Assembly (NCBI GenBank): GCA_943326025.2
Contig: CALPRR020000001.1
Span: forward strand, 1-35,392
DNA length: 35,392 bases
DNA from: Candidatus Kuenenia stuttgartensis
GTDB taxonomy: Bacteria; Bacteroidota; Bacteroidia; Flavobacteriales_D; Crocinitomicaceae
Reading direction: 5' to 3'
Positions 1,034-28,304 of the stretch are shown piece after piece. The stretch's first letter is position 1; each line of letters opens with the position of its first letter. The notes beneath the pieces are model-generated. The model had not been told where the DNA came from. It was given only the letters and a program-made list of their open reading frames with translations, and did no database searches. A program made the position numbers and the translations under genes.

Positions 1034-1062
1034 AGAGTCATAAGAGATTATGACTCTTTTTT
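1034..1062 (+). terminator. Rho-independent terminator for the PKD/T9SS gene
   Basis: A perfect 10-bp stem AGAGTCATAA (1034-1043) pairs with TTATGACTCT (1048-1057) around the loop GAGA, followed by TTTTT. It overlaps the stop codon of the convergent gene. Confidence 0.7.
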
Positions 1063-3286
1063 ATTCATGACCTTCTTCTAATTGTTGATTTGTAGATGAA
1101 AAATACTTAATACTAATTTCATTTTCTTCTGTCCCATATATATACTCTACTCTGGCACAGATTTTTCCTTCTAATTCTGTATTTACTAAATCCCCTATTA
1201 AATTTCTTGCCTCAATATTTTTAACAAGTTGATTTGGATAATAACTTATTGATATTGAAGCAACACTATCAATTGTTTCTGTAAATATTTTCTTGCAATT
1301 TTTATATTGTTCTTTTATTAAATTCCCGTTTGTATCGTGTTCAAAAACATAAATAGCAACATTATTGTTATCCAATTTTAATTTTTTCTTTTTAGAATAA
1401 AAACTTTTTTCTTTTAATAAGAAACCATCATAAACAAATCTATAAATAGCAAAACCAAAACGATCCTCCATTAATTTATTTTTTGAATTATAATATGCTG
1501 TTTCTATTAAATTACCAGATAAATCGTAATTATTTAACTCTTTATAAAAGCAGGTAATACAGGTAATATTCGTTATCGGATTTTCAAATTCATCCAATAG
1601 AATTCTTTCAACAAGTAAATTTGATGAATTATACTTAAGTTTTACTACTGCAATACTATCTAAATTAAGGCAAAGTTTTAGGTTTTGATCAAAATATCGA
1701 ATCTCTCTTTCTAAATTTAAAGTATCATCAACACTAATTGTTTTTTTAGCATAACCTTTTGCCGGTATGAATTTTAATTGATTTTTCACATCAAAATATC
1801 TCTCCTCAACTAAAATATCATTCAAATTATAATTATATTCTACTTTATGAAATCCTTCAGGTAATTCCATTGGTTTAGATAAACTATCAAACCAACATTC
1901 CCTTATAATTAATGAATTATCATTTAACATTACACGATATTTAATAGCTATACCATCTAACTCTGCATCTTCATCAATACCTACTAAATTTAAATTTTTA
2001 TCCAAAGCTTTAATTAATTTTTTACCAAAACCTTCATCATCATAGACATATTCAAATTCATATCGATAGACGCCTGAATAATCTTCAGTTGGATCATTAT
2101 TTTCATTCAAATAATATTCAGCATTAGTAAAATCATATGAATCAAATTCATAAACAATTTTATGTACACCATGAGAATTGTTTGTTGGCTGTTGATTAAT
2201 ACCAAAATAGCTTTCTTCAGAAATCCTACCCATTTCATGATATTTAAATCTTTGACCTGATAAACCATTTTTATTAATAACTGATTTTTTATTTAAGCCA
2301 TAATTAAAAATCGTAATTAAATTATTTAATGAATCATAGGTATATTCAATTCTAATTATAGAGTCATCAATAAAAAAAGGCTCATTTTTGTAATTGTAAA
2401 AATTAACTGAAAGTACATTTCCTCTATTGTCATTGAAATAATTTATTATTGAGGGTTTATTTGTAGAGTTCGTAATATCATTTTCAGTATAAGATAGAAT
2501 TTCACTAAACTTGTTTTGATTTATTATTTGATTAACATAACCATTTGAGTCATAATTAAACGTCTTAAAATAAATAGAAGGCTCTATTTCAAAAAGTTCA
2601 TTTAATCGGTTATATTTTTTTTCAAAAATCAAATTTCCAATTTCATTGTATAAATGTTCCATTTTAACTACTTCTTTACTTTCAACTTCATCAAGAAATT
2701 CGAATATTTCCTCGGTAAGTTGATTTTTTGAATTTAGCTTAACACTTACTGTTTTATTTTTTCCTTCTTGAAAATAAAACGGGTGATTTCCAGAAACATT
2801 CATTGATATCAATTCTCCTTGTTCATTGTAAATATATATTACTTGGCCTTGTTCTTCAAAAAACTCATCATCAAATTCAGATACTTCGTATGTATAAATA
2901 GATGAAACTCGATTTTTATCATCGTATTTTACTTGCCAATAAAATGAATTAGGTTCATATAAATTATCTAAATCCTCACCTTCAATATATGACTGAATTT
3001 GAACTTCAGATTCTTTATAGAGATATGATAGACGAATCCCATTTAAGATTGAACTGTAAACACCGACCGCATCATCCATTTTACAACTTTTAACATCATA
3101 TAAACGATTAATCGTATCATATTCAAAAACATAGTAATTCATGGTCATTGCTTCATCTTCTGTTATTGGATACATACCTTCGCATTTCCCATAAGCATCC
3201 ATGAAGGCATTTCTGTAATATTTTTTTGATTGCGCCTGAAGGCTTAAAACCAAAAGAAAAAAAGATAAACTAACTAATAATTTCAT
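1061..3286 (-). CDS. Secreted 741-aa protein made of degenerate YD/Rhs-like beta-hairpin repeats; function unknown
   Basis: The signal peptide is MKLLVSLSFFLLVLSLQAQ. Many short repeats have the form Y-x-Y/F-D-x-x-G-N-L-I (YNEQGELISM, YDSNGYVNQI, NDNRGNVLSV, YDSLNNLITI, YDLSGNLIETAYYN, HDTNGNLIKEQY). No recognisable toxin or Rhs-core domain is present. Confidence 0.6.
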   Translation of the reverse strand: MKLLVSLSFFLLVLSLQAQSKKYYRNAFMDAYGKCEGMYPITEDEAMTMNYYVFEYDTINRLYDVKSCKMDDAVGVYSSILNGIRLSYLYKESEVQIQSYIEGEDLDNLYEPNSFYWQVKYDDKNRVSSIYTYEVSEFDDEFFEEQGQVIYIYNEQGELISMNVSGNHPFYFQEGKNKTVSVKLNSKNQLTEEIFEFLDEVESKEVVKMEHLYNEIGNLIFEKKYNRLNELFEIEPSIYFKTFNYDSNGYVNQIINQNKFSEILSYTENDITNSTNKPSIINYFNDNRGNVLSVNFYNYKNEPFFIDDSIIRIEYTYDSLNNLITIFNYGLNKKSVINKNGLSGQRFKYHEMGRISEESYFGINQQPTNNSHGVHKIVYEFDSYDFTNAEYYLNENNDPTEDYSGVYRYEFEYVYDDEGFGKKLIKALDKNLNLVGIDEDAELDGIAIKYRVMLNDNSLIIRECWFDSLSKPMELPEGFHKVEYNYNLNDILVEERYFDVKNQLKFIPAKGYAKKTISVDDTLNLEREIRYFDQNLKLCLNLDSIAVVKLKYNSSNLLVERILLDEFENPITNITCITCFYKELNNYDLSGNLIETAYYNSKNKLMEDRFGFAIYRFVYDGFLLKEKSFYSKKKKLKLDNNNVAIYVFEHDTNGNLIKEQYKNCKKIFTETIDSVASISISYYPNQLVKNIEARNLIGDLVNTELEGKICARVEYIYGTEENEISIKYFSSTNQQLEEGHE

Positions 3287-3482: not shown

Positions 3483-4592
3483 ATGAAAACAAAGCATATT
3501 TTATATTCAATTTTAATTTTTTCAATATTAGTTGGTTGTTCAAGAAAAAGAAAAGAATCAAATCATTTTGAAACTAATTCCAATGTAAAATATGCGAAAA
3601 ACTTCAGTATTAAAATCAATAAAAATTATATTGAATTCCATCTATTAAATCCTGAAACGAATGAAATTGAAAAAAAATTCGCTTTAATCAAAAATGATTC
3701 TATAAAAGTACCTGAAGGATTCACTCCAATTTTAGTTCCAATAAAATCTACAATCACATTATCTAGTACTCACATAGGAATGCTTTCAAAATTAAATGCA
3801 TGTAATCTTGTTAAAGGTATTTCAAATCATAATTATGTATATGAACCAAGTATACTTGAACGTTATAAAAAAGGAGAAGTAATTGAATTGGGAGATGAAA
3901 ACTCGATATCAGTTGAATCTATTATTCGATCACAATCAGATCTATTGATTTATAGTGGATTCGGCAAAGAATTTCCTCATCAAGAACAATTAGAAAAACT
4001 CGGAACAATATGTTTAGCAAACTATGATTGGAAAGAAAATCATCCATTAGGTAAAGCAGAATGGATTAAAGTTTTTGGTTATTTAACAGGGAAAGAAGAA
4101 ATTGCTTCTATTTACTTTAAGGCGATAGAAAAGGATTATTTAAGTCTGAAAAAAATGGCTTCAAAACTAAAGGATACTCCTAGCCTTTTTAGTGGGAATT
4201 TAGTCGGCGATATTTGGTATTCTCCAGCTGGAGAAAGTTATAATGCTATTTTATTTAAAGATGCTAAAGGTGATTACAAATATGCTAATTCAAAAGGAAT
4301 AGGTAGTATTGAAAATAGCTTTGAACAAATATTTAGTGACAATTTAAATACACAATATTGGTTTAATCCAGGAATTGAATCGAAGCATGATTTATTAAAA
4401 AGTCAGCCAAAATTCAAATTATTTCAAGCTTATAAAGAAAATAAAATTTTCAGTTACACATTTTCTGGCAATGAATTTTGGGAAAGAAGCGCCGTTGAAC
4501 CAAATCATGTTTTATCAGATTTAATTCGAATTTTACATCCTGAACTTAAATTAAAAAATAAGCTTTATTTTTACAGAACTTTAAGCAAATAA
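3483..4592 (+). CDS. ABC transporter substrate-binding lipoprotein of the BtuF/FhuD type (cluster A: iron-siderophore, heme or cobalamin)
   Basis: A lipoprotein signal ends in LVGCS. It is the first gene of an SBP-permease-ATPase operon, with a 1-nt TAATG overlap to the permease. Length and sequence style fit the periplasmic binding protein family paired with FecCD permeases. Confidence 0.75.
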   Translation: MKTKHILYSILIFSILVGCSRKRKESNHFETNSNVKYAKNFSIKINKNYIEFHLLNPETNEIEKKFALIKNDSIKVPEGFTPILVPIKSTITLSSTHIGMLSKLNACNLVKGISNHNYVYEPSILERYKKGEVIELGDENSISVESIIRSQSDLLIYSGFGKEFPHQEQLEKLGTICLANYDWKENHPLGKAEWIKVFGYLTGKEEIASIYFKAIEKDYLSLKKMASKLKDTPSLFSGNLVGDIWYSPAGESYNAILFKDAKGDYKYANSKGIGSIENSFEQIFSDNLNTQYWFNPGIESKHDLLKSQPKFKLFQAYKENKIFSYTFSGNEFWERSAVEPNHVLSDLIRILHPELKLKNKLYFYRTLSK

Positions 4593-5590
4593 TGACTGTA
4601 GCACGTAAAAACAAATTCATTCTTATATCTTTGATTCTTTTGTTTCCAATTTTATGCGGAATACATTTGTTTGTAGGTGAAATATCAGTTTCATTTTCTG
4701 ATTTTTGGAATTCAGTATTGGATTTTAATAACGAAAATACCTCACAAACAATTATTCGAGAATTTAGAATACCACGACTTGTAATGGGTATTTTAGCTGG
4801 TAGTGGGCTTTCGATTGCTGGTTTATTCATGCAAACAATGTTTAACAATCCATTGGCTGGTCCTTATATTTTAGGAATAAATTCAGGATCAAGTCTTTTT
4901 GTAGCTTTTAGTGTAATGACAGGTATTCCATTTTTAACAACTGATCTTGGAACTATCTCAAGTGCATTAATTGGTGCTTTTATTTTTGGATTAATAATCC
5001 TTTCTTTTTCTTATTTAGTTAAATCACATATTTCTCTTTTATTGATTGGTATAATGCTTGGAAGTTTTACAAGTGCTATTGTTTCAATCTTACAAACTAT
5101 GAGCGAACCCAATCAACTGAAACTTTTTACTATGTGGACAATGGGATCGTTGCAGCAAGTCGAGTTTTCTGAATTACCGCTAATCGTATTTTTTTTTATT
5201 GTTGGAATTTCATTTTCACTTTTCATGATAAAACCGTTAAACGCACTTGTTATTGGTGAAAGTCAAGCATTAACATTAGGAATTCATGTAAAATATGTGC
5301 GACTTGCACTTATCTTGATAACAGCCATTTTAACTGGAATTATTACTGCTTATTGTGGACCAATAGCATTTGTTGGTCTTGCTGTACCAAACATTGTAAA
5401 AATGATTTTTAAAACTCAATCTCACTTAACATTATTAATTGGTTGTTTCTTAATTGGTAGTTTTTTCATGATTACATGTGATATATTAATTCAATTATTA
5501 GAAAGTACTATTCATATACCGATCAATGCATTAACTTCTATCATCGGAGCACCATTTGTGATCGTAATTGTTCTAAAACGACTAGCATGA
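4592..5590 (+). CDS. FecCD/BtuC-family ABC transporter permease
   Basis: It is a polytopic membrane protein with FecCD-like segments (RIPRLVMGILAGSGLSIAGLFMQTMFNNPLAGPYILGINSG and GPIAFVGLAVPNIVK). An ATGA overlap links it to the downstream ATPase. Confidence 0.85.
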   Translation: MTVARKNKFILISLILLFPILCGIHLFVGEISVSFSDFWNSVLDFNNENTSQTIIREFRIPRLVMGILAGSGLSIAGLFMQTMFNNPLAGPYILGINSGSSLFVAFSVMTGIPFLTTDLGTISSALIGAFIFGLIILSFSYLVKSHISLLLIGIMLGSFTSAIVSILQTMSEPNQLKLFTMWTMGSLQQVEFSELPLIVFFFIVGISFSLFMIKPLNALVIGESQALTLGIHVKYVRLALILITAILTGIITAYCGPIAFVGLAVPNIVKMIFKTQSHLTLLIGCFLIGSFFMITCDILIQLLESTIHIPINALTSIIGAPFVIVIVLKRLA

Positions 5591-6294
5591 TTGAGTTAAA
5601 AGAAATTGAAATAGGATATAAAAAACACTTGTTTTCTATTGATAACATTCAATTATCGAAAGGGAAAGTATACTCACTTATAGGTGCAAATGGTGCTGGG
5701 AAAACTACTTTTTTAAAAACTTTACAAGGAAATCATTCAACAATAAAAGGTAAAATTTTAATCAACAAAACGGATGTTCAACTTTTTGAACGCCAGAAGT
5801 TATCCCAAACAATTGCATTTGTTAATTCTAAATTTGATGGAGTAGACTATTTAAGAGTATCAGATTATGTAGGACTAGGTAGAACACCCTATACCAATGC
5901 ACTAGGAAGATTATCTGAAAAAGACCTTAAAATTATTGAAAATTCTTTAGACGAATTGAACATTAAACACCTCTCAAATTTTTTCACAACTAAACTTAGT
6001 GATGGAGAACGTCAATTAGCTGCTATTGCAAGAGCAATATCACAAGAAACAGATATTATTATATTAGATGAGCCTACTGCATTTTTAGATTATGCAAATA
6101 GAAAATTAGTAATGAAGGAAATGAAAAAAATTGCTTCAGAACATGAAAAATGTATCATTATTTCTTCTCACGATTTAGATTTATGTCTTGAAAGTGAAAC
6201 AGAAATTTTAGTCATAAATAAAAAAACTAAATCATTAGAACATTATATTTCAAATTCATTATCTAAAGAAAGTTTAATACAAATTGGTTTTTAA
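5587..6294 (+). CDS. ABC transporter ATP-binding protein (FepC/BtuD-like)
   Basis: It has a Walker A motif GANGAGKTT, an ABC signature LSDGERQ, a Walker B motif IIILDEPTAFLD and an H-loop SSHD. Confidence 0.9.
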   Translation: MIELKEIEIGYKKHLFSIDNIQLSKGKVYSLIGANGAGKTTFLKTLQGNHSTIKGKILINKTDVQLFERQKLSQTIAFVNSKFDGVDYLRVSDYVGLGRTPYTNALGRLSEKDLKIIENSLDELNIKHLSNFFTTKLSDGERQLAAIARAISQETDIIILDEPTAFLDYANRKLVMKEMKKIASEHEKCIIISSHDLDLCLESETEILVINKKTKSLEHYISNSLSKESLIQIGF

Positions 6295-9056: not shown

Positions 9057-10562
9057 ATGGACTATTTATTCACACTTGTTCAATCGCTAAGCGCTACTGA
9101 AAAAAGATATTTCACTAGATTGTCCACATTACAAACTCAAAGTTCAGTAAACCAATACGCACAACTTTTCAATAAGTTGTGTAAGGTAAAAAAATACAAT
9201 GAAAAAGAAATAAAGAAAGATTTTAACGCTGCTCATTTCCCACAATTAAAACAAACACTTTACAAAAAAATATTACAATCTTTGAGAATGTTTCATGCTT
9301 CGGAACATTTCGAAAATGAACCAAATATTCATTTAACTAATTCTAAAATATTACTTTCAAAAGGTTTATTAGACGAAGCAAAAAAAGAATTCAATAGAGC
9401 AGAAAAAAGAGCTCAAAGCGGAAGTCTACCATTTGAAACAGCAATGTTATTTAGAGAGAAAAATTTTCAAAACACCAGGACAATTTCAATTACTGATATT
9501 CAAGATCGTTTAAAAAATCATGATATTTTTTGGATAGATCACATTAAGGACCTTGAAAATGAACTAAAATATGAGAAGTTATTTTTGGAAGTTGAATTAT
9601 TAAACAAACAATTCGAAGCAACAAGAAATAGCCTAGAGAAAAGGAATATTTCAGATTTCTTACAAAATTTTTTATTAATCAATGAAAAATCAGCTGAAAC
9701 CTCTTACTCAAAAATACTATTTAATTTTATAAAAGGCCTAGCATATTTTTTAAATAGTGATTTTAATTACTCTGAAAAATACATGAATACATGCATTGAA
9801 TTATTTGAAGCTAATTCATCATACATATCTCAAAAAGAGGATATCTACATTCGTTCAATCGCAAATTTATGTTTAGTTCAATTATATCAAAAAAGTGATT
9901 CACTCAATGATTCAATTCAAAAATTAAAGAATTATAAAACTGAATTTCCGCATGTATTAGACTACAAAAACTATTTAATTTTTGTTTTAGAAATAATGAA
10001 ATTCAATTCAAATAATGAGTTTGAAAAGAGTATCTTATTGATAAAAGAAACTGAATCATTTACTTATAGAATTGAGAATCAAACACCTGAAAATAAGGAA
10101 ATAAATCAAGAAAAAATTTACAGTGTTTTTCAAAAAACAACTGCACACCTTGGTAATAATGATCGTATAAGCGCAAAAAAAACATTACAAAATTTCATTC
10201 AAAATAAGTCTGAACACATAAAAGAAGATGCTTTAATCTTAGCAAGAGTTCTACTTCTATTTATTCAGTTTGAATCTAATGACAATCAATTGATTGATTC
10301 AGAAATGAAAGCTACTGTTCGCTTTTTACATGAGCAAAACAAACTATACTTGTTTGAAAAACAAATATTAAAATTTATTTCTAATATGTTAGAAGCTAAT
10401 TCATCAAGTGAAAGAAAAGTTATTTTCTCACAGCTTAAAAATGATATGGCTAATTTAAAAAATATGGATCTAGAGAAAAATGCATTTATATATTTTGACT
10501 TTTCAAAATGGATAAATTCGTTTGACGATTCAAGCATAACCCAAGAAAGAAGTGATTATTAG
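9057..10562 (+). CDS. Hypothetical cytoplasmic all-helical (TPR-like) protein, 501 aa
   Basis: It is a long ORF with ordinary codon usage and no signal peptide. The N-terminus LVQSLSATEKRYFTRL resembles a conserved Bacteroidota family of unknown function. No catalytic motif is recognisable. Confidence 0.55.
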   Translation: MDYLFTLVQSLSATEKRYFTRLSTLQTQSSVNQYAQLFNKLCKVKKYNEKEIKKDFNAAHFPQLKQTLYKKILQSLRMFHASEHFENEPNIHLTNSKILLSKGLLDEAKKEFNRAEKRAQSGSLPFETAMLFREKNFQNTRTISITDIQDRLKNHDIFWIDHIKDLENELKYEKLFLEVELLNKQFEATRNSLEKRNISDFLQNFLLINEKSAETSYSKILFNFIKGLAYFLNSDFNYSEKYMNTCIELFEANSSYISQKEDIYIRSIANLCLVQLYQKSDSLNDSIQKLKNYKTEFPHVLDYKNYLIFVLEIMKFNSNNEFEKSILLIKETESFTYRIENQTPENKEINQEKIYSVFQKTTAHLGNNDRISAKKTLQNFIQNKSEHIKEDALILARVLLLFIQFESNDNQLIDSEMKATVRFLHEQNKLYLFEKQILKFISNMLEANSSSERKVIFSQLKNDMANLKNMDLEKNAFIYFDFSKWINSFDDSSITQERSDY

Positions 10563-13629: not shown

Positions 13630-14766
13630 ATGCAGTTTATTCCAGAATTTGAGTATAATTTAACGATGATATTATTTATCGTTTTCTCCTTTGCAGCCTT
13701 TATACAGCTGATTTACGTGCTATTCATTCACGGAAAACTTTCATTTTTCAACCCATCTAAACAAGTTGTTTCAACTGAATTTCCACCAGTAACAATATTG
13801 ATTTCTGCTAGAAATGAAGCTGATAACATCTATGAAAATCTTCCGACAATATTAGATCAAGACTATCCAGAATTTGAAGTCATTGTCATAAATCATCAAT
13901 CAATAGATGAATCTCATTATATTTTGAATGCATATGCACATCAATATAAAAACTTAAGAGTTATAGAAATTGAAAGAAGTCAACATTTAAAATCTGGAAA
14001 GAAACTTCCTTTAACGATTGGTATTAAAGGAGCAAAACATGAACATTTATTGTTTACTGACGCTGATTGTAAACCAACATCAAACCAATGGCTAAAAAGT
14101 ATGGCGAGTCGATTTACATCAGAGAAAGAAATTACGATTGGTTATGCCCCTTATGTTTTCAAGAAATCTTTTCTCAATAAGGTTATTCGATTTGATACTA
14201 CTTGGATCGCAATGAATTATTTTTCGATGGCTTTAGCTAAAATACCTTACATGGGTGTAGGTAGAAATATGGGTTATACTAAATCTGTTTTTAATTCTGT
14301 AAATGGATTTAAATCTCATTATTCGCTTGCTTCAGGAGATGATGATCTATTTATCCAAGAGTCTGCTACAAAAAAAAATATAGCAATTAACCTTGATAAA
14401 ACATCGTTTTGTTATTCTGAAGGTGCTGAAGACTGGGAAAGTTGGTTTCGACAAAAAGCTAGACACTATACTACGTCTAGCCGATATAGGGTTTTCAAAA
14501 AAGCAATGTTAGGAATATATCCTCTTACCATGTTTATGTTGTTGATTTCCTTTGTTATTTTGATGTTGGATACGAATTATCGTTGGTTAACACTTTCTAT
14601 TTTTGGATTTGTCATTATTGTAAAATGGTTGATTCATGCAAGATGTTTTAAAAAATTGCATGAACCTGGTTTTATTTCAATGATCCCATTACTTGATATT
14701 GCTTATTCAATTTTAATTCCAATACTCTATTATTCAGTGAACAAAAAAGAAGATACAAAATGGTAG
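13630..14766 (+). CDS. Membrane-bound family 2 glycosyltransferase
   Basis: An N-terminal TM helix is followed by a GT-A fold start (PPVTILISARNEADNI), a DxD-type motif TDADC, GDDDLF and a Q-x-x-R motif (RQKARH), then C-terminal TM helices. Confidence 0.8.
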   Translation: MQFIPEFEYNLTMILFIVFSFAAFIQLIYVLFIHGKLSFFNPSKQVVSTEFPPVTILISARNEADNIYENLPTILDQDYPEFEVIVINHQSIDESHYILNAYAHQYKNLRVIEIERSQHLKSGKKLPLTIGIKGAKHEHLLFTDADCKPTSNQWLKSMASRFTSEKEITIGYAPYVFKKSFLNKVIRFDTTWIAMNYFSMALAKIPYMGVGRNMGYTKSVFNSVNGFKSHYSLASGDDDLFIQESATKKNIAINLDKTSFCYSEGAEDWESWFRQKARHYTTSSRYRVFKKAMLGIYPLTMFMLLISFVILMLDTNYRWLTLSIFGFVIIVKWLIHARCFKKLHEPGFISMIPLLDIAYSILIPILYYSVNKKEDTKW

Positions 14767-15365
14767 GAAGCGAACATTTATCAGATAAAGCAAAGCATGA
14801 CTTACAATTAGTCAACGCTGCGATTAGCGGTAAACAAAGTGCCTACGCTGAATTAATGGAGAAATATCGTGAATCTATTTATTTCATGATGTTGAAAATG
14901 GTTAAGAATCCAGATGATGCAGAAGATTTAACATTAGAAGCATTTGGTAAAGCTTTTAGTCGTTTAGAACAATATTCTCCTAGTTTTGCTTTTAGTACAT
15001 GGCTATTCAAAATTGCATCTAATAACAGTATCGATTTTATTCGTAAAAAAAGAATTAAAGTCACTTCAATGGATACTGGAATGATGACTGATGATGGTGA
15101 AACAATTTTTTATGATGCAAAATCTCAAACGTTAGATCCTGAAGAAACAATTATCTATAATCAGAAAGTTAAATTGATGCGTAATTTGGTGAGTCAATTA
15201 AAACCAAGATATAGAGAATTGGTTGAAAAACGATACTTTGAAGAATTGAGTTATGAAGAAATTGCTGAAGAACTTAATTTACCTCTAGGAACTGTGAAAG
15301 CTCAATTATTCAGAGCTAGAGAGTTTTTGGCAAATATGATTGAAAAAACAAAAGAGAATATTTAA
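14760..15365 (+). CDS. Sigma-70 family, ECF-type RNA polymerase sigma factor
   Basis: Region 2 (DAEDLTLEAFGKAF..FSTWLFKIASNNSIDFIRKK) and the region 4 helix-turn-helix (LSYEEIAEELNLPLGTVKAQLFRAREFL) are present. The ATG overlaps the GT2 stop by 7 nt. Confidence 0.85.
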   Translation: MVGSEHLSDKAKHDLQLVNAAISGKQSAYAELMEKYRESIYFMMLKMVKNPDDAEDLTLEAFGKAFSRLEQYSPSFAFSTWLFKIASNNSIDFIRKKRIKVTSMDTGMMTDDGETIFYDAKSQTLDPEETIIYNQKVKLMRNLVSQLKPRYRELVEKRYFEELSYEEIAEELNLPLGTVKAQLFRAREFLANMIEKTKENI

Positions 15366-15418
15366 TTTCTTTAGATTATAAATTTTCAGACTCTTTATCT
15401 TTAAGGAGAAATCAAATT

Positions 15419-16048
15419 ATGAATTCAGTACAACTTATATTAAAATATTTTCCTGATTTGACTGAAAAGCAAATCGAACAATTTTCTAAATTATTAGAAG
15501 TATATACCTTTTGGAACAATCAAATCAATGTGATTTCTAGAAAAGACACCGATAATTTTTACGAAAGACATGTATTGCATTCATTAGGAATTGCTAAAAT
15601 TATGCAATTCAAAGATGGTGCTGATATTATGGATATAGGAACAGGGGGTGGCTTCCCTGGTATTCCATTAGCAATTCTTTATCCAAACTGTAATTTCACT
15701 TTAGTTGATTCAATCGGTAAAAAAATAAAAGTGGTAAATGAAGTTGCTGCAGCAATTGGTTTGACAAATGTTACAGGAATTCATGAACGTGCTGAAAACA
15801 TTGATAAACAATTTGATTTTATTGTAAGTCGAGCTGTTACAGCAATGCCTGATTTCATCAAATGGATCAATGGAAAATTCAAAAAGAAAAGTGTCCACGA
15901 TTTAAAAAATGGAATCTTATATCTTAAAGGTGGTGATTTAAAAGAAGAAATGAAGGGTGTGAACCGTTATTTCTACATGCATAATCTACCTGATCATTTT
16001 TCAGAAGAATTCTTTGAGACGAAGAAAGTGGTTTATGTGAGATATTAA
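15419..16048 (+). CDS. rsmG: 16S rRNA (guanine527-N7)-methyltransferase
   Basis: Length and motifs are GidB/RsmG-like: the SAM-binding site DIGTGGGFPGIPLAI and the segment FDFIVSRAV. Confidence 0.9.
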   Translation: MNSVQLILKYFPDLTEKQIEQFSKLLEVYTFWNNQINVISRKDTDNFYERHVLHSLGIAKIMQFKDGADIMDIGTGGGFPGIPLAILYPNCNFTLVDSIGKKIKVVNEVAAAIGLTNVTGIHERAENIDKQFDFIVSRAVTAMPDFIKWINGKFKKKSVHDLKNGILYLKGGDLKEEMKGVNRYFYMHNLPDHFSEEFFETKKVVYVRY

Positions 16049-22452: not shown

Positions 22453-25400
22453 TTATTCAACAACTAATTTTTGTACAAAACTTCCTTTTACAGAGTTGAT
22501 TTTAACAAAATAAATTCCTGCTGATAAATCAGTTGAAATAGATGTTGTATTTGTTAAATTATCTGTAATTGATTTTACCTGTTTTCCGATTTCGTTGAAA
22601 ATAACGATTGAAGTTAAAGTTAATGTTTCATCCATAACTTTTACAGTAAACATACCATTTGAAGGATTCGGATAAATAGACAACCCATTTTCAACTGTTG
22701 AAATTGAATTTAAACCTAAAGTAGTGAAACCTACAATTGCTGATGAACTTGAAGTACATCCATTTGTTGTAACTGTAACAGAATAATCTCCATTAGCTGT
22801 TACAGTGTATGACTGATTCGTTGCATTTTGAATTGCAGAACCATTTAAATACCATTGATTTCCTGAAGCAACATTTGTGCTTAATAAAGTACCATTTGCA
22901 TATAAAACTGGTGCAGTTGGAATTGGATTAATTGTCATTTCAATTGATTGAGCGTTCACCGTATCAATAGTAGCACAAGTTAAACTAGAAATTAAATTAC
23001 AAGTAACAATATCATTGTCATTTAAAGTTGAAATTATTAATGTATCTGAATTCTCAGACAATAGATTCCCATTAACAAACCATTCATAAAAAGGAGTTGT
23101 ACCTGCATTTATTCCATCAGCAACTAATATCACTTCAGAACCAGCACAGGCTGTATTGTTTGCTAAAATAGAAACAGAAGGAATTAATGCAGAATTTACA
23201 TTTATCGCTACAATCGCTGAAGTGTCATCTAAATCAGATATACATGATTCACTTGAAGTTAATACACAATATACTTCATCACCATTTACTAACGTATCTA
23301 CAACTATCGAAGTTGATGTTGAAACACTTTCTCCGTTGATAAACCACTCAAATGTTGGTGTATTTCCTGCGTATGTAGTTGATTGTGAAAAAGTAACTTC
23401 TTGACCAGAACAAATTGTTGTAATATCAGCTGAAACATTAATAGAAGGAGTTACAGGGGACGCTCCTGAAATTGTCATTGAATCTGTATGCGAAATAGAC
23501 AATGCATCTGAGACAGTCACAAAATAAGTACCTTGAAGAAGGTTATTGATTGAAGCTGTTGTCGCACCATTACTCCATAAATAAGTATATGGAGCAGTTC
23601 CACCAGTTGCAACTGCAGATAAAGATCCGTCATTCGCATTGATACATGAAGGAGAAGATGGATAATTGATTGCTACATTAACTGGAAGTTCAGAAAGACC
23701 ATTTGAATACAAACAGTTATTTTCTGTCGTTACAAAAACTCGAGAAGTAACAAATGAAATTTTATTTACTGCCGTATAACTTGGTAAATTGAATTGGTTT
23801 CCACCTGCTTCCCACGTTTGACCATGATCACTTGTTGCAATTAAACCACCTCTATAACTTGCAAAAACATAACCTCCAAAAGTACCCATTGCTTGAATAG
23901 CATCTCCATCCAAACCTAATAAAGTAGTATGAGAAATTGAAGTAGGTGAAGTAGCTGACCAATTAAAATCAGAAATATCAGCAACAAACACTCCGTCATG
24001 ATGCGTTCCAACATAAATTTTTGTCCCTAATGTCGTTATAGCAGTTGTATGATCGGTCGGTAAATTCGTTGTTATATTTGTCCAATTACCTGACGCTTCA
24101 TTTCTTGAGTGAACTCCTCCTCCATGGATAGCAATTACAACTTTATCTCCATATGAAGAAAATGCAACATCTTCTAAATTAGTGCCTAAATTCCCTTGAA
24201 TTGAAGTCCATGCACCTGTTCCATTAGATTGGTAAATTGTACCTGTTGCATCAAAAATGTACACATAATTTGATGTAGCAAACACTTTTTTTACAGATAA
24301 TTCAAACAATCCAATATTAAACTCATTCCAAACAGCACCTGTATCATTACTCACAAAAACACCTGCATTTTCAGTAACAGCAAATAATTTTGTTCCTTTA
24401 AACGTTAAATCATTTACATGTAAATAATCTGTTAAACCATTATTTGCAGCAGTATAAGAAGTTGCTAAATTTTTACTTACAAATACCCCTTTTTCAGTAG
24501 CTGCAACAATTACTTGATCTCCACTTGTTGCCATTGAATAGGTCACCTGATTGTTGTACCCCGTATTATTCGCTATCCAACTGATTGAAGAATTTGATGT
24601 TTTATAGATGCCATCTTTGTAAACACCTGCAATTAAACTTGTGTTATACGCTGCAACAATATTTACATTCATATTAGAGGTAAATCCGGTATTAATAGTT
24701 GACCAAGAAATTGATCCTGTAACTGAAGTATAAACTCCATTATCTGTTGCTAAATACCAATTTGTACCATTATTTGTAATTGAATTAATAGCTAAATTCA
24801 AAATTAATCCTGAAGTTACTGCAACATATACAGGCGATGTTGTGGTACTAGCTGAAGCTAATACAAAAACACCATTGTGATTTTTTACTAATATTTCATT
24901 TGTAGTACCATTGTAAGATATTGCAGTTGTATTTGATATGTTTAATGTATTTGCATCATTTAAACCTAACCAAGATAAACCATTATCATCAGAATAATAA
25001 ACTCCTTTATTTTCAGCTGTCAATATTAAACGTGCACCTGCTTTTACAATACCCGTAATATTTGTTCCAGCAAAAGGTAAACTTGTAATTTCACTCCAAT
25101 TTGAACCATTATCAATTGTTCTGAAAATTTTTCCATTGGAAGTTCCTACAACTAATGATGTTGCATCAAATGAAGCGATAGCTGTCGTATTTTTGCTTGT
25201 CAATCCATTTTGAACTTTTTCCCAGTATCTGTCAGAACCAACATAACCAGTAAAACGGAAAACGCCACTATCAACTGTTGCTGCAAATAAATTTGATCCT
25301 GCAAAATCTAACGCAGCAATTTTACCACTTTTCAAACCAACAGGTTTACAGCTCCATCCTACTAAAGAAGCATTTGTATTTACATAAACACCTCCATTTT

Positions 25401-25551
25401 CAGTTCCAAAATAAACCAATCCACCTCCTTGAGTTGAACAGGTGATTTTACCACTACCGTATGGACCTTTAGATCCAAAGTGTGCGAATGAGATTGTTGA
25501 AACATATAAAAATGCAATCAACATCATTGACTTTAAAGTATTATTTTTCAT
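22453..25551 (-). CDS. Large secreted protein: Asp-box (BNR-like) beta-propeller region, one SprB-type repeat, three Ig-like modules and a T9SS type A C-terminal sorting domain
   Basis: It has a signal peptide. Asp-box motifs are present (TIDNGSNWSEI, SDDNGLSWLGL, SNDTGAVWNEF, SDHGQTWEAG) plus degenerate copies. The SprB-like repeat is CINANDGSLSAVATGGTAPYTYLWSNGATT..GTYFVTVSDA. Three modules share C..(F/Y)EWF.NG..C. The C-terminus is IYPNPSNGMFTVKV..GIYFVKINS..FVQKLVVE. Confidence 0.8.
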   Translation of the reverse strand: MKNNTLKSMMLIAFLYVSTISFAHFGSKGPYGSGKITCSTQGGGLVYFGTENGGVYVNTNASLVGWSCKPVGLKSGKIAALDFAGSNLFAATVDSGVFRFTGYVGSDRYWEKVQNGLTSKNTTAIASFDATSLVVGTSNGKIFRTIDNGSNWSEITSLPFAGTNITGIVKAGARLILTAENKGVYYSDDNGLSWLGLNDANTLNISNTTAISYNGTTNEILVKNHNGVFVLASASTTTSPVYVAVTSGLILNLAINSITNNGTNWYLATDNGVYTSVTGSISWSTINTGFTSNMNVNIVAAYNTSLIAGVYKDGIYKTSNSSISWIANNTGYNNQVTYSMATSGDQVIVAATEKGVFVSKNLATSYTAANNGLTDYLHVNDLTFKGTKLFAVTENAGVFVSNDTGAVWNEFNIGLFELSVKKVFATSNYVYIFDATGTIYQSNGTGAWTSIQGNLGTNLEDVAFSSYGDKVVIAIHGGGVHSRNEASGNWTNITTNLPTDHTTAITTLGTKIYVGTHHDGVFVADISDFNWSATSPTSISHTTLLGLDGDAIQAMGTFGGYVFASYRGGLIATSDHGQTWEAGGNQFNLPSYTAVNKISFVTSRVFVTTENNCLYSNGLSELPVNVAINYPSSPSCINANDGSLSAVATGGTAPYTYLWSNGATTASINNLLQGTYFVTVSDALSISHTDSMTISGASPVTPSINVSADITTICSGQEVTFSQSTTYAGNTPTFEWFINGESVSTSTSIVVDTLVNGDEVYCVLTSSESCISDLDDTSAIVAINVNSALIPSVSILANNTACAGSEVILVADGINAGTTPFYEWFVNGNLLSENSDTLIISTLNDNDIVTCNLISSLTCATIDTVNAQSIEMTINPIPTAPVLYANGTLLSTNVASGNQWYLNGSAIQNATNQSYTVTANGDYSVTVTTNGCTSSSSAIVGFTTLGLNSISTVENGLSIYPNPSNGMFTVKVMDETLTLTSIVIFNEIGKQVKSITDNLTNTTSISTDLSAGIYFVKINSVKGSFVQKLVVE

Positions 25552-25570: not shown

Positions 25571-25954
25571 TTAATTATTTTGAGCTCCTTGCTCTATCCA
25601 TTTTAAAATCAAATCCAATTTACATTGTTCTAACACGCCATTTGGTGGCATTGGATTATTAACGGATTTCATCGATGAATACAACAAACTTGAACTCGGA
25701 TTTGTGGTGTTTATATAACCACTTTGACTGTTTAATAACTGCTGATATGAAACACTTGACACTAAATTTAAATTACCCTTCGGATTTGTTCCTGAATGGC
25801 AACCTGATGTTGTACAATTCTCATTGAAAATTGGTTGTACATCATTTTTATAAGAAACAGTATCGGGTAAATCACATTTCTCTTTCTTCTTTTTACATGA
25901 CGTAAAATGCAAGAACGAAATCATAATTACTATGAGTGTAAAAAATTTTATCAT
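25571..25954 (-). CDS. Small lipoprotein with a PSCyt1-like (planctomycete cytochrome c-like) domain carrying a non-canonical C-x4-C-H motif
   Basis: A signal/lipobox ends in ..HFTSC. The sequence VQPIFNENCTTSGCHSGTNPKGNLNLVS...NPSSSLLYSSM...NPMPPNGVLEQCKLDLILKWIEQGA follows the PSCyt1 pattern (C..CH....KGGL.L......PG.P..S.L......MPP...L......I..WI..GA), but the Cys pair is spaced CTTSGCH (nt 25796-25816). Confidence 0.6.
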   Translation of the reverse strand: MIKFFTLIVIMISFLHFTSCKKKKEKCDLPDTVSYKNDVQPIFNENCTTSGCHSGTNPKGNLNLVSSVSYQQLLNSQSGYINTTNPSSSLLYSSMKSVNNPMPPNGVLEQCKLDLILKWIEQGAQNN

Positions 25955-25957
25955 CAG

Positions 25958-26746
25958 TTATTCGTATCTAAACAAATTTGGAATGTTATTTTTAATCATT
26001 GTTGCAATTGAAGAACTATTGTCTTGAGCTGAAGACACATTCAAATTTGAAGGATTTGTTAAATCAATTCCATCAAACAATTTTGAATAATCGACAATCA
26101 TGTGCACATAATTCACGTTGTCTTTTAAAACTGTAAAATTTTGAATTGGCATTTCAACAGAAACATAATTCGTATTTGTTCCAATTTTATAACAAAATGG
26201 TACTGGTGTTCCATTCATAGCATTTGTAGTATCAATAGCTCCTTGAACATTCATAAATACATAACCATCTGGTTGTGCTGATGAACTAAACCACATTTGT
26301 TGCATTTTAAGAATGATTGAATCTGCAGATAAAGTTGGAGATAATGCATTTGTCGTTGCGTCTAAACCAACTTTAAATCTTACTGACTTATAATTCCCAA
26401 CTGGAACATCACCAACTGTCAGCCCTTCAGATTCAAACAATTTTATTACATTTTTTTGTAAATCAACTGTTGAGCCATCTAACTTAACCAATTGTATTCC
26501 TGAGATGTAAAATTGAGCACGACTTAATGAAATTATTCTTCCTGCATAAGTAGTCATATCAATATTATATGCATCAACTTCTGTATCCTCAATGTAAGTA
26601 TGCAAATGAAACATTAAAGTTCCTTTTGCTACGTTAGATTGATCATTATTATTGGATTGATCATTATTGTTTTCATCTTTTTTACAAGAAAGAGCTATGA
26701 AAGCAGCTACAACTATAATAGATAATTTTTTGATTATACTTTTCAT
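25958..26746 (-). CDS. MbnP-like lipoprotein (putative copper-binding periplasmic or surface protein)
   Basis: The lipobox is ALSCKKDENNN. Sequence landmarks recalled for the MbnP family are present: RAQFYISGIQLVKLDGS, YKSVRFKVGLDA, MQQMWFSS..DGYVFMNVQG and DYSKLFDGIDL. The assignment is by eye only. Confidence 0.55.
   Translation of the reverse strand: MKSIIKKLSIIVVAAFIALSCKKDENNNDQSNNNDQSNVAKGTLMFHLHTYIEDTEVDAYNIDMTTYAGRIISLSRAQFYISGIQLVKLDGSTVDLQKNVIKLFESEGLTVGDVPVGNYKSVRFKVGLDATTNALSPTLSADSIILKMQQMWFSSSAQPDGYVFMNVQGAIDTTNAMNGTPVPFCYKIGTNTNYVSVEMPIQNFTVLKDNVNYVHMIVDYSKLFDGIDLTNPSNLNVSSAQDNSSSIATMIKNNIPNLFRYE
26637..26672. repeat. Imperfect 18-nt tandem duplication in the linker of the MbnP-like gene
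   Basis: GATTGATCATTATTATTG is followed directly by GATTGATCATTATTGTTT; the first 14 nt are identical. It encodes the duplicated linker NNNDQSNNNDQSN just after the lipobox. Confidence 0.7.
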
Positions 26747-26756
26747 TTAATAAAAT

Positions 26757-27827
26757 TTAAAATGAATAACTTATTGAACCTATTAATGAATTTTTAGATT
26801 TATTTTGAATTCCATCAACATACTGATAAATAGGGAAACCATACTCAAAATTTAGTTTAACATTTTCAAAGAAACCCTTCGGAAATTGATACGATAAACC
26901 AACTAACGTACTTATTGATTTCAACCCATAATTGATTGTATTTGCAGATGGTTCATTGAACCTATAAATTGTTTTATCATACCCTTGAATCACATCAATT
27001 AACTTACCCTCAAATCTAATAGAACTACTAAAGTTATTCCACCAATTATAAGCTCCCCATACATTTAAATAATATTCGTTACCTAATCGATAGCCAATAT
27101 TATTTGTATTTAAACGCATTACAGAACTTCCTTGAAAGCTATAGGCAAATCCATTTGATTGTTTAATGTATGTCAAACTCGGTAATAGTTCAAAAGAGCC
27201 TGAACCCATTTGCATCATATAAGCAAATCGCTCATTAGGGTATAACATATCGTTGGACAATCCTTTCATTTGAATTGAACCAGTTGGAATACTTCCTCCT
27301 AAGCCTAAAATCAATTGACTAGATGTATTTTTTACAATACCATACAATAAATGAAGTTTTATATCGCCAAATCCAGATGTTAGCATAGTCATATCTGCAT
27401 TATTTGTCATTTCCATACCTGGCATTGAATGATCGTGACTCATCGTTGGAACCATGGTCATTCCCATAGAAGTCTGATTGTAATGCAACATTAACATTCC
27501 TGTAAAACGTTCAGAAAAACCATACATTCCCATTAACATATGCATTTGCATGTTCATTTTACTAGAACTCATGATATAATCATTGAATACATCCATTTCA
27601 TCAATTGGATTGTTTCCAGAAATCAACGTTGAATTATTCATTTGCATATATCGATACGATAACATCCATTCTTTCTTTGGATGAACATGACTAATCATAA
27701 CTCCCGCAGGAGTTAGATTTCTCAAACAATGACATGAATGATCACAACTAATAGTATCTTGACCAAATAAATTAATAGATAACAATGTTCCAAGTAACAG
27801 AACATTCCATTTTTGTTTAAAAAACAT
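26757..27827 (-). CDS. Met/His-rich outer-membrane beta-barrel 'transporter' (MetA-pathway/Phenol_MetA_deg-like OMP)
   Basis: It has a signal peptide. CDHSCHC sits at the mature N-terminus (nt 27726-27746). The segment GVMISHVHPKKEWMLSYRYMQMN is present. Residues 86-148 contain 18 Met and 4 His (nt 27384-27572; for example KMNMQMHMLMGM and MGMTMVPTMSHDHSMPGMEMTNNADMTM). The rest has alternating beta-strands, and the C-terminus ends ..SISYSF with an aromatic residue. Confidence 0.65.
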   Translation of the reverse strand: MFFKQKWNVLLLGTLLSINLFGQDTISCDHSCHCLRNLTPAGVMISHVHPKKEWMLSYRYMQMNNSTLISGNNPIDEMDVFNDYIMSSSKMNMQMHMLMGMYGFSERFTGMLMLHYNQTSMGMTMVPTMSHDHSMPGMEMTNNADMTMLTSGFGDIKLHLLYGIVKNTSSQLILGLGGSIPTGSIQMKGLSNDMLYPNERFAYMMQMGSGSFELLPSLTYIKQSNGFAYSFQGSSVMRLNTNNIGYRLGNEYYLNVWGAYNWWNNFSSSIRFEGKLIDVIQGYDKTIYRFNEPSANTINYGLKSISTLVGLSYQFPKGFFENVKLNFEYGFPIYQYVDGIQNKSKNSLIGSISYSF

Positions 27828-27852
27828 TTATTGAATTTTAATTTGTTTTATT

Positions 27853-27868
27853 GAAGATTTAAATCTTC
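27853..27868. repeat. Perfect 16-bp palindrome GAAGATTTAAATCTTC in the spacer between the small membrane-protein gene and the OMP gene
   Basis: It was read directly from the sequence. It lies 26-41 nt upstream of the OMP ATG (27827). It could be an operator for a dimeric regulator or an intercistronic RNA hairpin. Confidence 0.6.
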
Positions 27869-27917
27869 CAAGAAATCAGATTGTATTTTTATAAAAAAAT
27901 CAATCACTTAAAACAAA

Positions 27918-28304
27918 TTAAACTCTCGGAGGCTGAAAAACTGAGTTTAAATCACTCTGAATTATACTTTTATTGTATTCAAAAACATCTTTTTTCTTAG
28001 CTTTCAAAAAATCGCTTTCAAAAAAAGCATACGTTTCAACTGAAATTTGATCAGTAATTACTTCTATTTTCTCTTTTGATGATGAGGATTTATTTTCTTT
28101 TTGATCTTGCTTTTTTAACTGCTTTGCCAAATGACATTTACCATTACATTTCAATATCGGTTTAGACTTGTTGACACATAGATTATTCGCTATGTATTCT
28201 TTATTGATAATGTAATCTGTATATATAATGAATTTACCCAATGCTTGCATAACAAAAGCACTGATTACAACAAAAGCAATTATTGTATGTAAATTCTTTT
28301 TCAC
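27918..28304 (-). CDS. Small membrane-anchored protein with a C-x9-C-x3-C-H motif; function unknown
   Basis: It has a GTG start and one N-terminal TM helix (IIAFVVISAFVMQALGKFII). It then reads YIANNLCVNKSKPILKCNGKCHLAKQL (nt 28131-28178), followed by a Lys/Ser/Glu-rich linker and a short C-terminal domain. This is the first gene of the cluster. Confidence 0.55.
   Translation of the reverse strand: MKKNLHTIIAFVVISAFVMQALGKFIIYTDYIINKEYIANNLCVNKSKPILKCNGKCHLAKQLKKQDQKENKSSSSKEKIEVITDQISVETYAFFESDFLKAKKKDVFEYNKSIIQSDLNSVFQPPRV

Follow-up and report, generated by a model that had tools for sequence, protein, structure and literature searches.

A histidine-triad clade of MbnP-fold lipoproteins in a conserved gene cluster of Bacteroidota

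The stretch of DNA analysed here, which we call the window, is 35,392 nucleotides long (contig CALPRR020000001.1 of assembly GCA_943326025.2) and carries a gene for a lipoprotein of the MbnP family. Four neighbouring genes on the same strand are designated g128, g356, g127 and g1032, and the MbnP-like gene lies between g356 and g127 (Table 1). A preliminary description, made from the sequence alone, had drawn attention to this gene because no gene for the partner enzyme MbnH was seen in the window and because the Trp motif of the protein was altered. We found that the protein is not a degenerate MbnP. Instead, it represents a clade of Bacteroidota proteins that is without the WxW motif of canonical MbnP and that carries a conserved set of three His residues.

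Family and fold of the MbnP-like protein

The open reading frame (ORF) of the MbnP-like gene has exactly the boundaries that the preliminary description gave, and encodes 262 residues. All of the motifs quoted there are present: FYISGIQLVKLDGS at residues 79-92, RFKVGLD at 123-129, MQQMWFSS at 148-155, MWFSSSAQPDGYVFMNVQG at 151-169, and KLFDGIDL at 222-229. One detail had to be corrected, as the spacing between MW and GYVF is 8 residues rather than 4. The protein contains a single Trp (W152), three His (H47, H49 and H215) and two Cys (C21 and C185).

Membership in the MbnP family was confirmed by a profile hidden Markov model (HMM). The protein matches Pfam family PF20243 with 79 bits (E 5.6e-22, cut-off 27), and the match spans profile positions 2-184 of 189. 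The same family is carried by all 120 homologues listed. The NCBIfam equivalog TIGR04052, named 'MbnP_like_WxW', gave 24.3 bits against a cut-off of 140 and was below threshold. Bacteroidota paralogues that do contain WxW, which are described below, also score under this cut-off (25-47 bits). Thus, TIGR04052 is tuned to other phyla.

The predicted structure agrees with the family assignment. An AlphaFold2 model built from 36 homologues (predicted local distance difference test, pLDDT, 86.5; predicted template modelling score, pTM, 0.79) has the MbnP fold and not an unrelated one. When the model was compared with the PDB by Foldseek, the only matches at E<=0.001 were the six chains of 7L6G, the MbnP of Methylosinus trichosporium OB3b (E 1e-7, probability 1.00, template modelling (TM) score 0.46-0.52, identity 13-15%). 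Neither the protein by itself nor a profile of the 36 sequences found an MbnP match when the PDB was searched by sequence, and the link to 7L6G was obtained only through the fold search and through a profile of WxW-type relatives. These results support the identification of the gene product as a lipoprotein of the MbnP family with the MbnP fold.

The signal peptide ends at the lipobox Cys, C21, which is invariant among the 36 aligned homologues. The mature N-terminus, C-K-K-D-E-N, fits the surface-lipoprotein export signal of Bacteroidota, whose optimal form is C-X-K-(D/E)2-X (PMC5080379), and because of this match the protein may face outward. Its localisation is uncertain, since the motif is only partly kept across the family.

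Relatives of the window protein are numerous. We found 318 close relatives in a database clustered at 90%, and those with a named source are all Bacteroidota (Crocinitomicaceae, Fluviicola, Saprospiraceae and Flavobacteriales); some are annotated as 'MbnP family protein'. A profile search of a library clustered at 50% gave 2,334 representatives at E<=1e-3, of which 126 were at E<=1e-30. The identical protein sequence was found in lake metagenome assemblies, and the locus is present in about 20 metagenome runs from lakes or other freshwater and in no RNA run. The His-triad clade is a large and unstudied group of hundreds of sequence clusters that is common in freshwater Bacteroidota.

The Trp motif, the clade-specific His residues and MbnH

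The copper of MbnP is bound by a His, a Met, a solvent ligand and Kyn174, and the kynurenine is made by MbnH from Trp174, the first Trp of a conserved WxW motif (PMC11951088). The preliminary description had stated that the window protein has one Trp only, within MQQMWFSS, and this was borne out. The single Trp is not a peculiarity of the window gene: M151 and W152 are invariant in the 36 aligned homologues, and exactly one Trp occurs in nearly all of the orthologues from 69 genome loci. The claim of an altered motif stands in so far as the canonical WxW is absent. We did not encounter 'MMWSW', the form given there for flavobacterial homologues, in exactly those letters; WxW-type paralogues have M-[YFH]-W-x-W.

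To relate the residues of the two proteins, we aligned a profile of WxW-type relatives with 7L6G, which set 'G-M-A-W-N-W-Q-A-G' against 'S-M-H-W-S-W-N-S-G'. The numbering offset of +25 was fixed with an N-terminal OB3b fragment (a search with the 7L6G fragment returned two truncated proteins only), and with this offset the OB3b residues are M172, W174 (the first Trp), W176 and, further on, 'W-M205-V-H207-V-G'. A profile-profile alignment (hhalign) of the window clade with the WxW-type relatives had a probability of 100% and paired M151 with M172, W152 with position 173, F153 with W174, S155 with W176, and K187 with H207. The Trp-bearing loop is three residues longer in the window clade than in the WxW type. 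Thus, when the ligands are aligned with those of MbnP, the Met at M172 is kept as M151, but the His at H207 is replaced by K187. Here M172 and H207 are taken as the 7L6G ligands from the alignment and from co-variation, and M205 is another Met candidate. The absence of WxW from the window protein is certain, whereas the register of its Trp is ambiguous in the alignments. Among the relatives, intermediate forms read M-W-W-x-W and M-W-W-G-N. Such forms fit a stepwise change, with the Trp moved along by one position.

The window clade has a His signature of its own. H47, H49 and H215 are invariant in the 36 homologues, as are M151 and W152. Where the clade reads F-H-L-H-T in the first strand, OB3b MbnP reads R-F-A-L-V. 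We counted signatures in 292 non-redundant family members, with no correction for kinship. The strand-1 HxH and H215 occurred together in 262 of them, singly in 8 and 5, and were both missing from 17 (odds ratio 111). A His in the H207 column, which is column 187 of the window protein, was present in 16 of the 18 sequences with WxW versus 2 of the 274 without it. The window clade carries only the first of these two signatures, HxH with H215, and not the second, WxW with the H207 His. Some relatives have lost the Trp altogether and read M-F-F or M-L-F; they retain HxH, M151 and H215 and mostly have Lys at position 187. Because these Trp-less members keep the His residues and the Met, the conserved core of the clade appears to be the His triad plus Met rather than the Trp.

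We next consider MbnH. As the preliminary description had claimed, there is no MbnH in the 35-kb window: the CCP_MauG HMM matched none of the window ORFs, CxxCH occurred in no real ORF, and six MbnH-like proteins of related loci, used as tblastn queries, found neither a gene nor a remnant. Syntenic Fluviicola loci likewise contain neither an MbnP-MbnH pair nor remnants of one by tblastn. Elsewhere, 17 related loci have a gene of about 340-395 residues with two CxxCH motifs near the cluster, one of them being a DUF3347 fusion of 515 residues. Each gene tested scored 149-192 bits against CCP_MauG; in NCBIfam, the MbnH family was the best model, with scores under its cut-off. If the count is limited to distinct loci flanked by 9 kb or more on each side, an MbnH-like gene lies within 10 kb of the cluster in 8 of 27 (about 30%).

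These MbnH-like genes have an MbnP of their own. In all 15 loci inspected, the MbnH-like gene was directly preceded by a separate WxW-type MbnP lipoprotein of 256-290 residues with the motif M-[YF]-W-x-W-x-S-G-Y, and the ten such paralogues tested all matched the Pfam MbnP family (133-192 bits). The F-H-[LIV]-G segment aligned with H207 is kept in 13 of the 15, and the His triad is mostly missing. The WxW-type proteins (for example L009:13669-14478 with its MbnH-like gene at 14534-15550, and those of L026, L022 and L056) resemble the window protein in phylum, fold family, size and lipoprotein nature, and the pairs often lie within a few kb of a His-triad cluster. They differ in that they are only about 25% identical to it, keep M-x-W-x-W and F-H-L-G, and always stand directly upstream of CCP_MauG. 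Bacteroidota therefore have two MbnP paralogues, a WxW type that belongs to a classical MbnP-MbnH pair and a His-triad type. As each MbnH-like gene inspected follows its own WxW-type MbnP, MbnH pairs with the other clade. We dropped a reading in which the linked MbnH-like genes serve the His-triad clade because of these upstream paralogues. The MbnP-MbnH pair is a separable module that often lies beside the cluster, and this explains why Trp-less members of the clade are also found next to such pairs.

Some loci contain further haem proteins near these genes. At L013:15215-15607, the WxW-type MbnP and the MbnH-like gene are separated by an ORF of 131 residues that contains CxxCH, possibly a further small cytochrome that goes with the pair. 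A di-haem oxidoreductase of the DHOR type (PF06537, 307-345 bits) is encoded near the cluster at L029:14216-15595, L043:3182-4567 and L058:5419-6801, where it occurs instead of, or besides, a CCP_MauG gene.

It could be argued that the window protein keeps the canonical mechanism. W152 would then be the equivalent of W174 and would be oxidised to kynurenine by an MbnH-like enzyme encoded elsewhere, and copper would be bound by M151, Kyn152 and one His. One aligner does set W152 under W174, but the profile-profile alignment places F153 there, and Lys occupies the equivalent of H207. W152 is the sole Trp, does not vary within the close clade and comes immediately after the Met that aligns with M172, and M-W-W intermediates exist; yet the Trp-less members keep the rest of the pattern and still lie beside an MbnP-MbnH pair. 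The presence of MbnH-like genes less than 10 kb from about 30% of the fully flanked clusters is probably far above chance for a gene that occurs a few times per genome. Every one of those inspected, however, has its own WxW-type MbnP directly upstream, and neither the window nor the syntenic Fluviicola loci contain an MbnH. We regard retention of the canonical mechanism as doubtful. The preliminary description had offered two alternatives, that another oxidant replaces MbnH or that this subfamily binds metal differently. The second fits the evidence better, because MbnH pairs with the other clade.

The comparison with OB3b MbnP can be drawn together as follows. The two proteins share the Pfam family, the fold, targeting to the periplasm or envelope, a length of about 260-300 residues and copper-related neighbourhoods; the Met at M172 and the 'G-Y-x-F' strand around it are conserved as well. 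They are about 14% identical. The window protein has no WxW, has Phe at the profile-aligned W174 and Lys at the H207 equivalent. Unlike OB3b MbnP, it has the strand-1 HxH and H215, and is a lipoprotein with a low-complexity linker. It also has no adjacent MbnH, no adjacent TonB-dependent transporter and no four-Cys motif. The last of these is the feature after which the PDB molecule of 7L6G is named ('four-Cys motif protein'), and the window protein has only the lipobox C21 and C185, which is not conserved. Thus, most of the features tested for a kynurenine-type MbnP failed: WxW, the H207 equivalent, the four-Cys motif, an adjacent MbnH and the equivalog score.

The conserved cluster and its other products

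The gene order g128, g356, MbnP-like gene, g127, g1032 is conserved. In 70 loci searched with the window neighbours by tblastn, g128 was present in 54, g356 in 48, g127 in 54 and g1032 in 48. The gaps between successive genes of the window cluster are 90, 10, 3 and 19 bp. Scans for promoters and terminators and an Rfam scan gave nothing informative; the promoter scan used the sigma-70 consensus, which is ill-suited to Bacteroidota. The five genes look like a conserved outer-membrane operon and an undescribed copper-handling system.

Table 1. Features of the MbnP-like gene and its cluster in the window.
Feature	Coordinates	Strand	Basis or remark
MbnP-fold lipoprotein, 'MW / His-triad' clade, 262 residues	25958..26746	-	ORF, Pfam, predicted model
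Lipobox Cys21, followed by K-K-D-E-N	26669..26686	-	Matches Bacteroidota surface-lipoprotein export signal
H47-L-H49, invariant HxH in first beta-strand, candidate metal ligands	26600..26608	-	Alignment, model
M151-W152, invariant Met (aligned with M172) and only Trp, in the loop that bears WxW in canonical MbnP	26291..26296	-	Alignment
K187, at the MbnP H207 position ('H-[ILV]-G' His of WxW-type proteins)	26186..26188	-	Alignment
H215, third invariant His, co-varies with HxH	26102..26104	-	Alignment
g127, small lipoprotein, probable mono-haem c-type cytochrome (PSCyt1-like), 3 bp downstream of MbnP-like gene	25571..25954	-	HMMs, alignment
g127 C47-T-T-S-G-C52-H53, predicted expanded haem-c attachment motif	25796..25816	-	Alignment
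g127 M102-P-P, conserved candidate distal Met ligand	25643..25651	-	Alignment
g356, predicted outer-membrane beta-barrel, COG4313 / Phenol_MetA_deg type, 10 bp upstream of MbnP-like gene	26757..27827	-	Model, Foldseek
g356 methionine ladder (M93, M95, M97, M99, M101, M111, M113, M121, M123), two adjacent strands	27459..27551	-	Alignment, model
g356 N-terminal Cys/His/Met-rich segment (CDHSCHC ... M-I-S-H-V-H) before the barrel	27681..27746	-	C32, C34, M44, H47, H49 conserved
g128, first cluster gene, small membrane-anchored protein of CruR-like architecture, followed by 90-bp gap	27918..28304	-	Alignment
g128 Cys motif C43-x-N-x3-P-x3-C53-x-G-K-C57	28134..28178	-	Alignment
g128 C-terminal V-F-Q-P-P-R-V, conserved [IV]-F-[HQR]-P-P two residues before stop	27921..27941	-	Alignment
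g1032, type IX secretion system cargo: BNR/sortilin-like propeller repeats, SprB, PKD-like, C-terminal sorting domain, 19 bp downstream of g127	22453..25551	-	HMMs
g1032 His24, predicted first mature residue (…SFA|HFGSKGPYG)	25480..25482	-	Cleavage from A-x-A-like pattern, no tool prediction

The cluster varies among close relatives. The closest ones, L016, L049 and L075, have a three-gene version without g127 and g1032. The genes that flank the window cluster are 93-99% identical to those of a Fluviicola metagenome-assembled genome (MAG; L016/L075). Together with the lake and freshwater metagenomes, this marks the source of the window as a Fluviicola-like bacterium from freshwater. Within the cluster, window positions 25958-28304 compared with L016:1236-3566 and L075:8450-10780 are only 72% (g128), 61% (g356) and 51% (MbnP-like protein) identical, which indicates either recombinational replacement or faster evolution than in the surroundings. 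Two metagenome contigs that encode the identical MbnP-like protein (L071:9087-11167 and L072:7389-9556) show strain-level variation downstream of g127. There, the strains have either a full type IX secretion system (T9SS) cargo of 1,034 residues or about 2 kb without called genes, and a pair of DUF6624 and AraC-type genes takes the place of the 636-residue T9SS protein of the window. One Bacteroidota contig has two tandem MbnP-family genes (272 and 267 residues) within the cluster (L079:9122-10804). Several MAG records with the cluster, such as L002 (CALPVI020000245.1), L017 and L020, bear the names of improbable organisms (Actinomyces viscosus, Chitinophaga pinensis, Chryseobacterium gleum), and are probably mislabelled bins. 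At some distance from the cluster, the window ORFs at 1061-3286 (minus strand) and 9057-10562 (plus strand), of 741 and 501 residues, have no Pfam match at E<=1e-5; the former adjoins a FecCD-type ABC importer (3483-6294).

The preliminary description had named the neighbour with a C-x4-C-H motif, g127, as the obvious candidate for another oxidant. The motif is indeed there, as CTTSGCH at residues 47-53. Expanded haem-c attachment motifs occur in cytochromes c3. At this site, 55 of the g127 orthologues have C-x4-C-H and 2 the canonical CxxCH, and the residues C47, C52, H53 and M102-P103 do not vary. The window protein scored 18.1 bits against PSCyt1 (cut-off 22), and 24 of 33 orthologues matched this family at E<=0.01 (best 1.7e-6). 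Their other Pfam matches were to cytochrome c families only, six to Cytochrome_CBB3 and two to PccH. Taken together, the motif and the profile matches make it very probable that g127 is a c-type cytochrome with one haem and an expanded attachment motif.

Does g127 take the place of MbnH and oxidise the MbnP-like protein? Its location 3 bp downstream, its conservation in 54 of 70 loci and the very probable haem would all suit such a role. We consider the idea highly improbable, as in at least 14 loci g127 is found together with MbnH-like genes and does not replace them. It is also missing from the three-gene clusters of the closest relatives, and the Trp-less members of the clade keep it. In addition, one haem together with a conserved His and Met is what an electron carrier would show, whereas the chemistry of MbnH and MauG involves two haems and a bis-Fe(IV) state (PMC11951088). 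Thus, the earlier suggestion about g127 was only half right.

The product of g356 is predicted to be an outer-membrane barrel. Its model, made with database homologues, has a pLDDT of 84.1, and its best Foldseek matches are FapF (5O67) and the COG4313 channel (4RL8), both with probability 1.0; against 4RL8 the E value is 2.9e-17 and the TM-score on the target 0.70. About 25 of 120 homologues have a precomputed match to PF13557, while the window protein itself has no Pfam match, and neither g128 nor g356 matches NCBIfam. The C-terminal Phe is invariant. The predicted fold is thus that of 4RL8 and FapF (TM-score about 0.7 on the target), but g356 differs from these solved relatives in two features not seen for them, a Cys/His-rich N-terminus and a ladder of nine Met residues that are invariant and follow an alternating pattern. 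The ladder, on two adjacent strands of the modelled barrel, could be a methionine track that conducts Cu(I).

The small protein g128 has an N-terminal transmembrane helix, and all 53 orthologues have both C-x-G-x-C and a C-terminal Pro-Pro. The Pro-Pro lies 1-4 residues before the stop codon in 51 of the 53, and 64-73 residues separate it from the Cys motif. The gap that follows the gene is 42-247 bp in adjacent pairs. This arrangement recalls CruR (DUF2946; Bordetella bp2923), a copper-sensing upstream ORF that heads copper operons, some of which contain MbnPH-like genes (PMC9426467). Like CruR, g128 is the first gene, has an N-terminal export or transmembrane segment, a Cys motif, an x-P-P element 2-4 residues before the stop in CruR terms, a constrained distance between Cys and Pro-Pro, and a long gap before the next gene (PMC9426467). 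It differs in the Cys motif, which is C-x-G-K-C (CxxxC) with an extra upstream Cys instead of CXXC, in the C-terminus (F-[HQ]-P-P versus R-A-P-P), in the spacing (about 66 versus 45 residues) and in phylum (Bacteroidota versus Proteobacteria). It also has no Pfam match to DUF2946: the PF11162 HMM matched none of six g128 family members at E<=1.

The last gene of the cluster, g1032, encodes a T9SS cargo. In 40 orthologues the signal peptide always ends in …A|H-[FW]-G-S-K-G-P, and for this reason a His, His24 in the window protein, is predicted to be the first mature residue. An N-terminal His is used by copper 'histidine brace' proteins. His24 is the only invariant His in the 40 orthologues, and no second conserved His was found in them.

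Genes that adjoin the cluster in other loci point to copper. In 13 loci, a divergent pair that consists of an HMA protein (GLTCSAC) and a protein of 313 residues adjoins the cluster; these pairs were found by BLAST with the HMA protein of L001, as a strict HMA regular expression found almost nothing. At L077, two SCO1/SenC genes and an HMA gene lie upstream on the same strand. Such HMA, SCO1/SenC and DUF3347-fusion neighbours belong to other loci, and none is in the window.

A function unrelated to copper also has to be weighed, in which the MbnP fold would serve another metal or ligand, or the protein would be a structural partner of the T9SS cargo. A role in metal binding is putative for the clade, the Pfam match is modest, and the equivalog score is far under its cut-off (24 versus 140 bits). 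The structural relatives of g356 (FapF, COG4313 and FadL) move peptides or hydrophobic molecules, and g1032 weakly resembles glycoside-hydrolase-like propellers. The evidence against such a function is the nine invariant Met on two barrel strands, the Cys/His-rich segments, the HMA and SCO1/SenC neighbours, the CruR-like leader and the frequent presence of bona fide MbnP-MbnH pairs next to the cluster, all of which indicate copper or another soft metal like it. We think a non-copper function quite improbable.

A proposed model for copper handling without MbnH

Based on these results, we propose a model in which the MbnP-like gene encodes a copper-binding lipoprotein of the MbnP fold that uses a His/Met set, works without MbnH and is part of a conserved copper operon. 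We believe this to be the best explanation and give it a probability of about one half. It builds on the observed fold and family, the clade-specific residues, the conservation of the operon, the pairing of MbnH with the other clade and the copper-related neighbours; what we infer from these is which metal is bound and by which ligands, in which direction transport runs, and each step of the mechanism.

The first part of the model concerns the MbnP-like protein. It would be anchored in the outer membrane and would bind copper, most likely Cu(I), through H47, H49, H215 and M151, with no need for MbnH. W152 may act as a second-sphere aromatic cap rather than as a precursor of kynurenine. CusF binds Cu(I) with a His and two Met, and a Trp caps the site through a cation-pi contact. 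Periplasmic copper chaperones of the CusF or CopC type would thus resemble our proposal in having a His/Met copper site, an unmodified aromatic cap and hand-off to or from a membrane transporter. Their fold and family are unrelated to those of the MbnP-like protein, and the likeness is one of analogy only. Within the operon, the MbnP-like protein would serve as the soluble component that binds copper and hands it on.

The second part of the model assigns roles to the other products. By analogy with CruR, g128 may be a leader that makes expression responsive to copper, and g356 may be a methionine-lined outer-membrane channel for Cu(I). The cytochrome g127 would perhaps reduce Cu(II) or pass electrons, for either supply or removal. 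The T9SS-secreted g1032, with its N-terminal His, would act at the cell surface. A partial parallel is found in MopE and CorA of methanotrophs, which use kynurenine and a cognate di-haem peroxidase (PMC3621798, PMC11951088). There, a surface or secreted copper-binding protein is combined with envelope copper proteins, which may be analogous to the T9SS cargo and the MbnP-like protein. The folds differ, and g1032 is a propeller protein in which only the N-terminal His is conserved.

Several points weigh against this model. W152 is invariant in the close clade and stands beside a conserved Met, which is also what one would expect of a kynurenine precursor, and its register relative to W174 is ambiguous, as different aligners place it at 173, 174 or 176. 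The ligand set rests on sequence conservation, and the spatial closeness of H47, H49, H215 and M151 is presumed. The signature statistics are uncorrected for phylogeny, and the identities of the His and Met in 7L6G were taken from alignment. The match to the export signal suggests that the protein is exposed on the surface, which would change the proposed order of hand-off. Last, an MbnP-MbnH pair adjoins the cluster in about 30% (8/27) of the fully flanked loci, and cross-talk between the two is possible.

The model can be extended to a self-contained outer-membrane system for copper acquisition in Bacteroidota, although we hold this fuller version to be unlikely as it stands. In such a system, g1032 would capture copper, g127 would reduce it, g356 would conduct Cu(I) as a passive barrel and the MbnP-like protein would bind it through three His and a Met, with neither kynurenine nor MbnH. 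The switch for the whole would be a translational-arrest leader of the CruR kind, with an origin or divergence separate from that of DUF2946.

Within a very large family, only MbnP has been characterised structurally, and the site where it holds copper requires a kynurenine made by an enzyme. If our model is true, the requirement for kynurenine is not a property of the MbnP fold. If the clade has swapped this site for an ordinary His/Met site, then the annotation 'MbnP family protein' covers two functionally different proteins in Bacteroidota. The leader g128 would extend copper-sensing arrest peptides of the CruR type beyond Proteobacteria. The operon is a testable candidate for outer-membrane copper uptake or handling in T9SS-bearing Bacteroidota, and we found no such system in the literature searched. 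Thus, the interest of the locus lies less in one MbnP-like gene without a partner than in a clade and an operon that suggest an MbnH-independent copper system in Bacteroidota.

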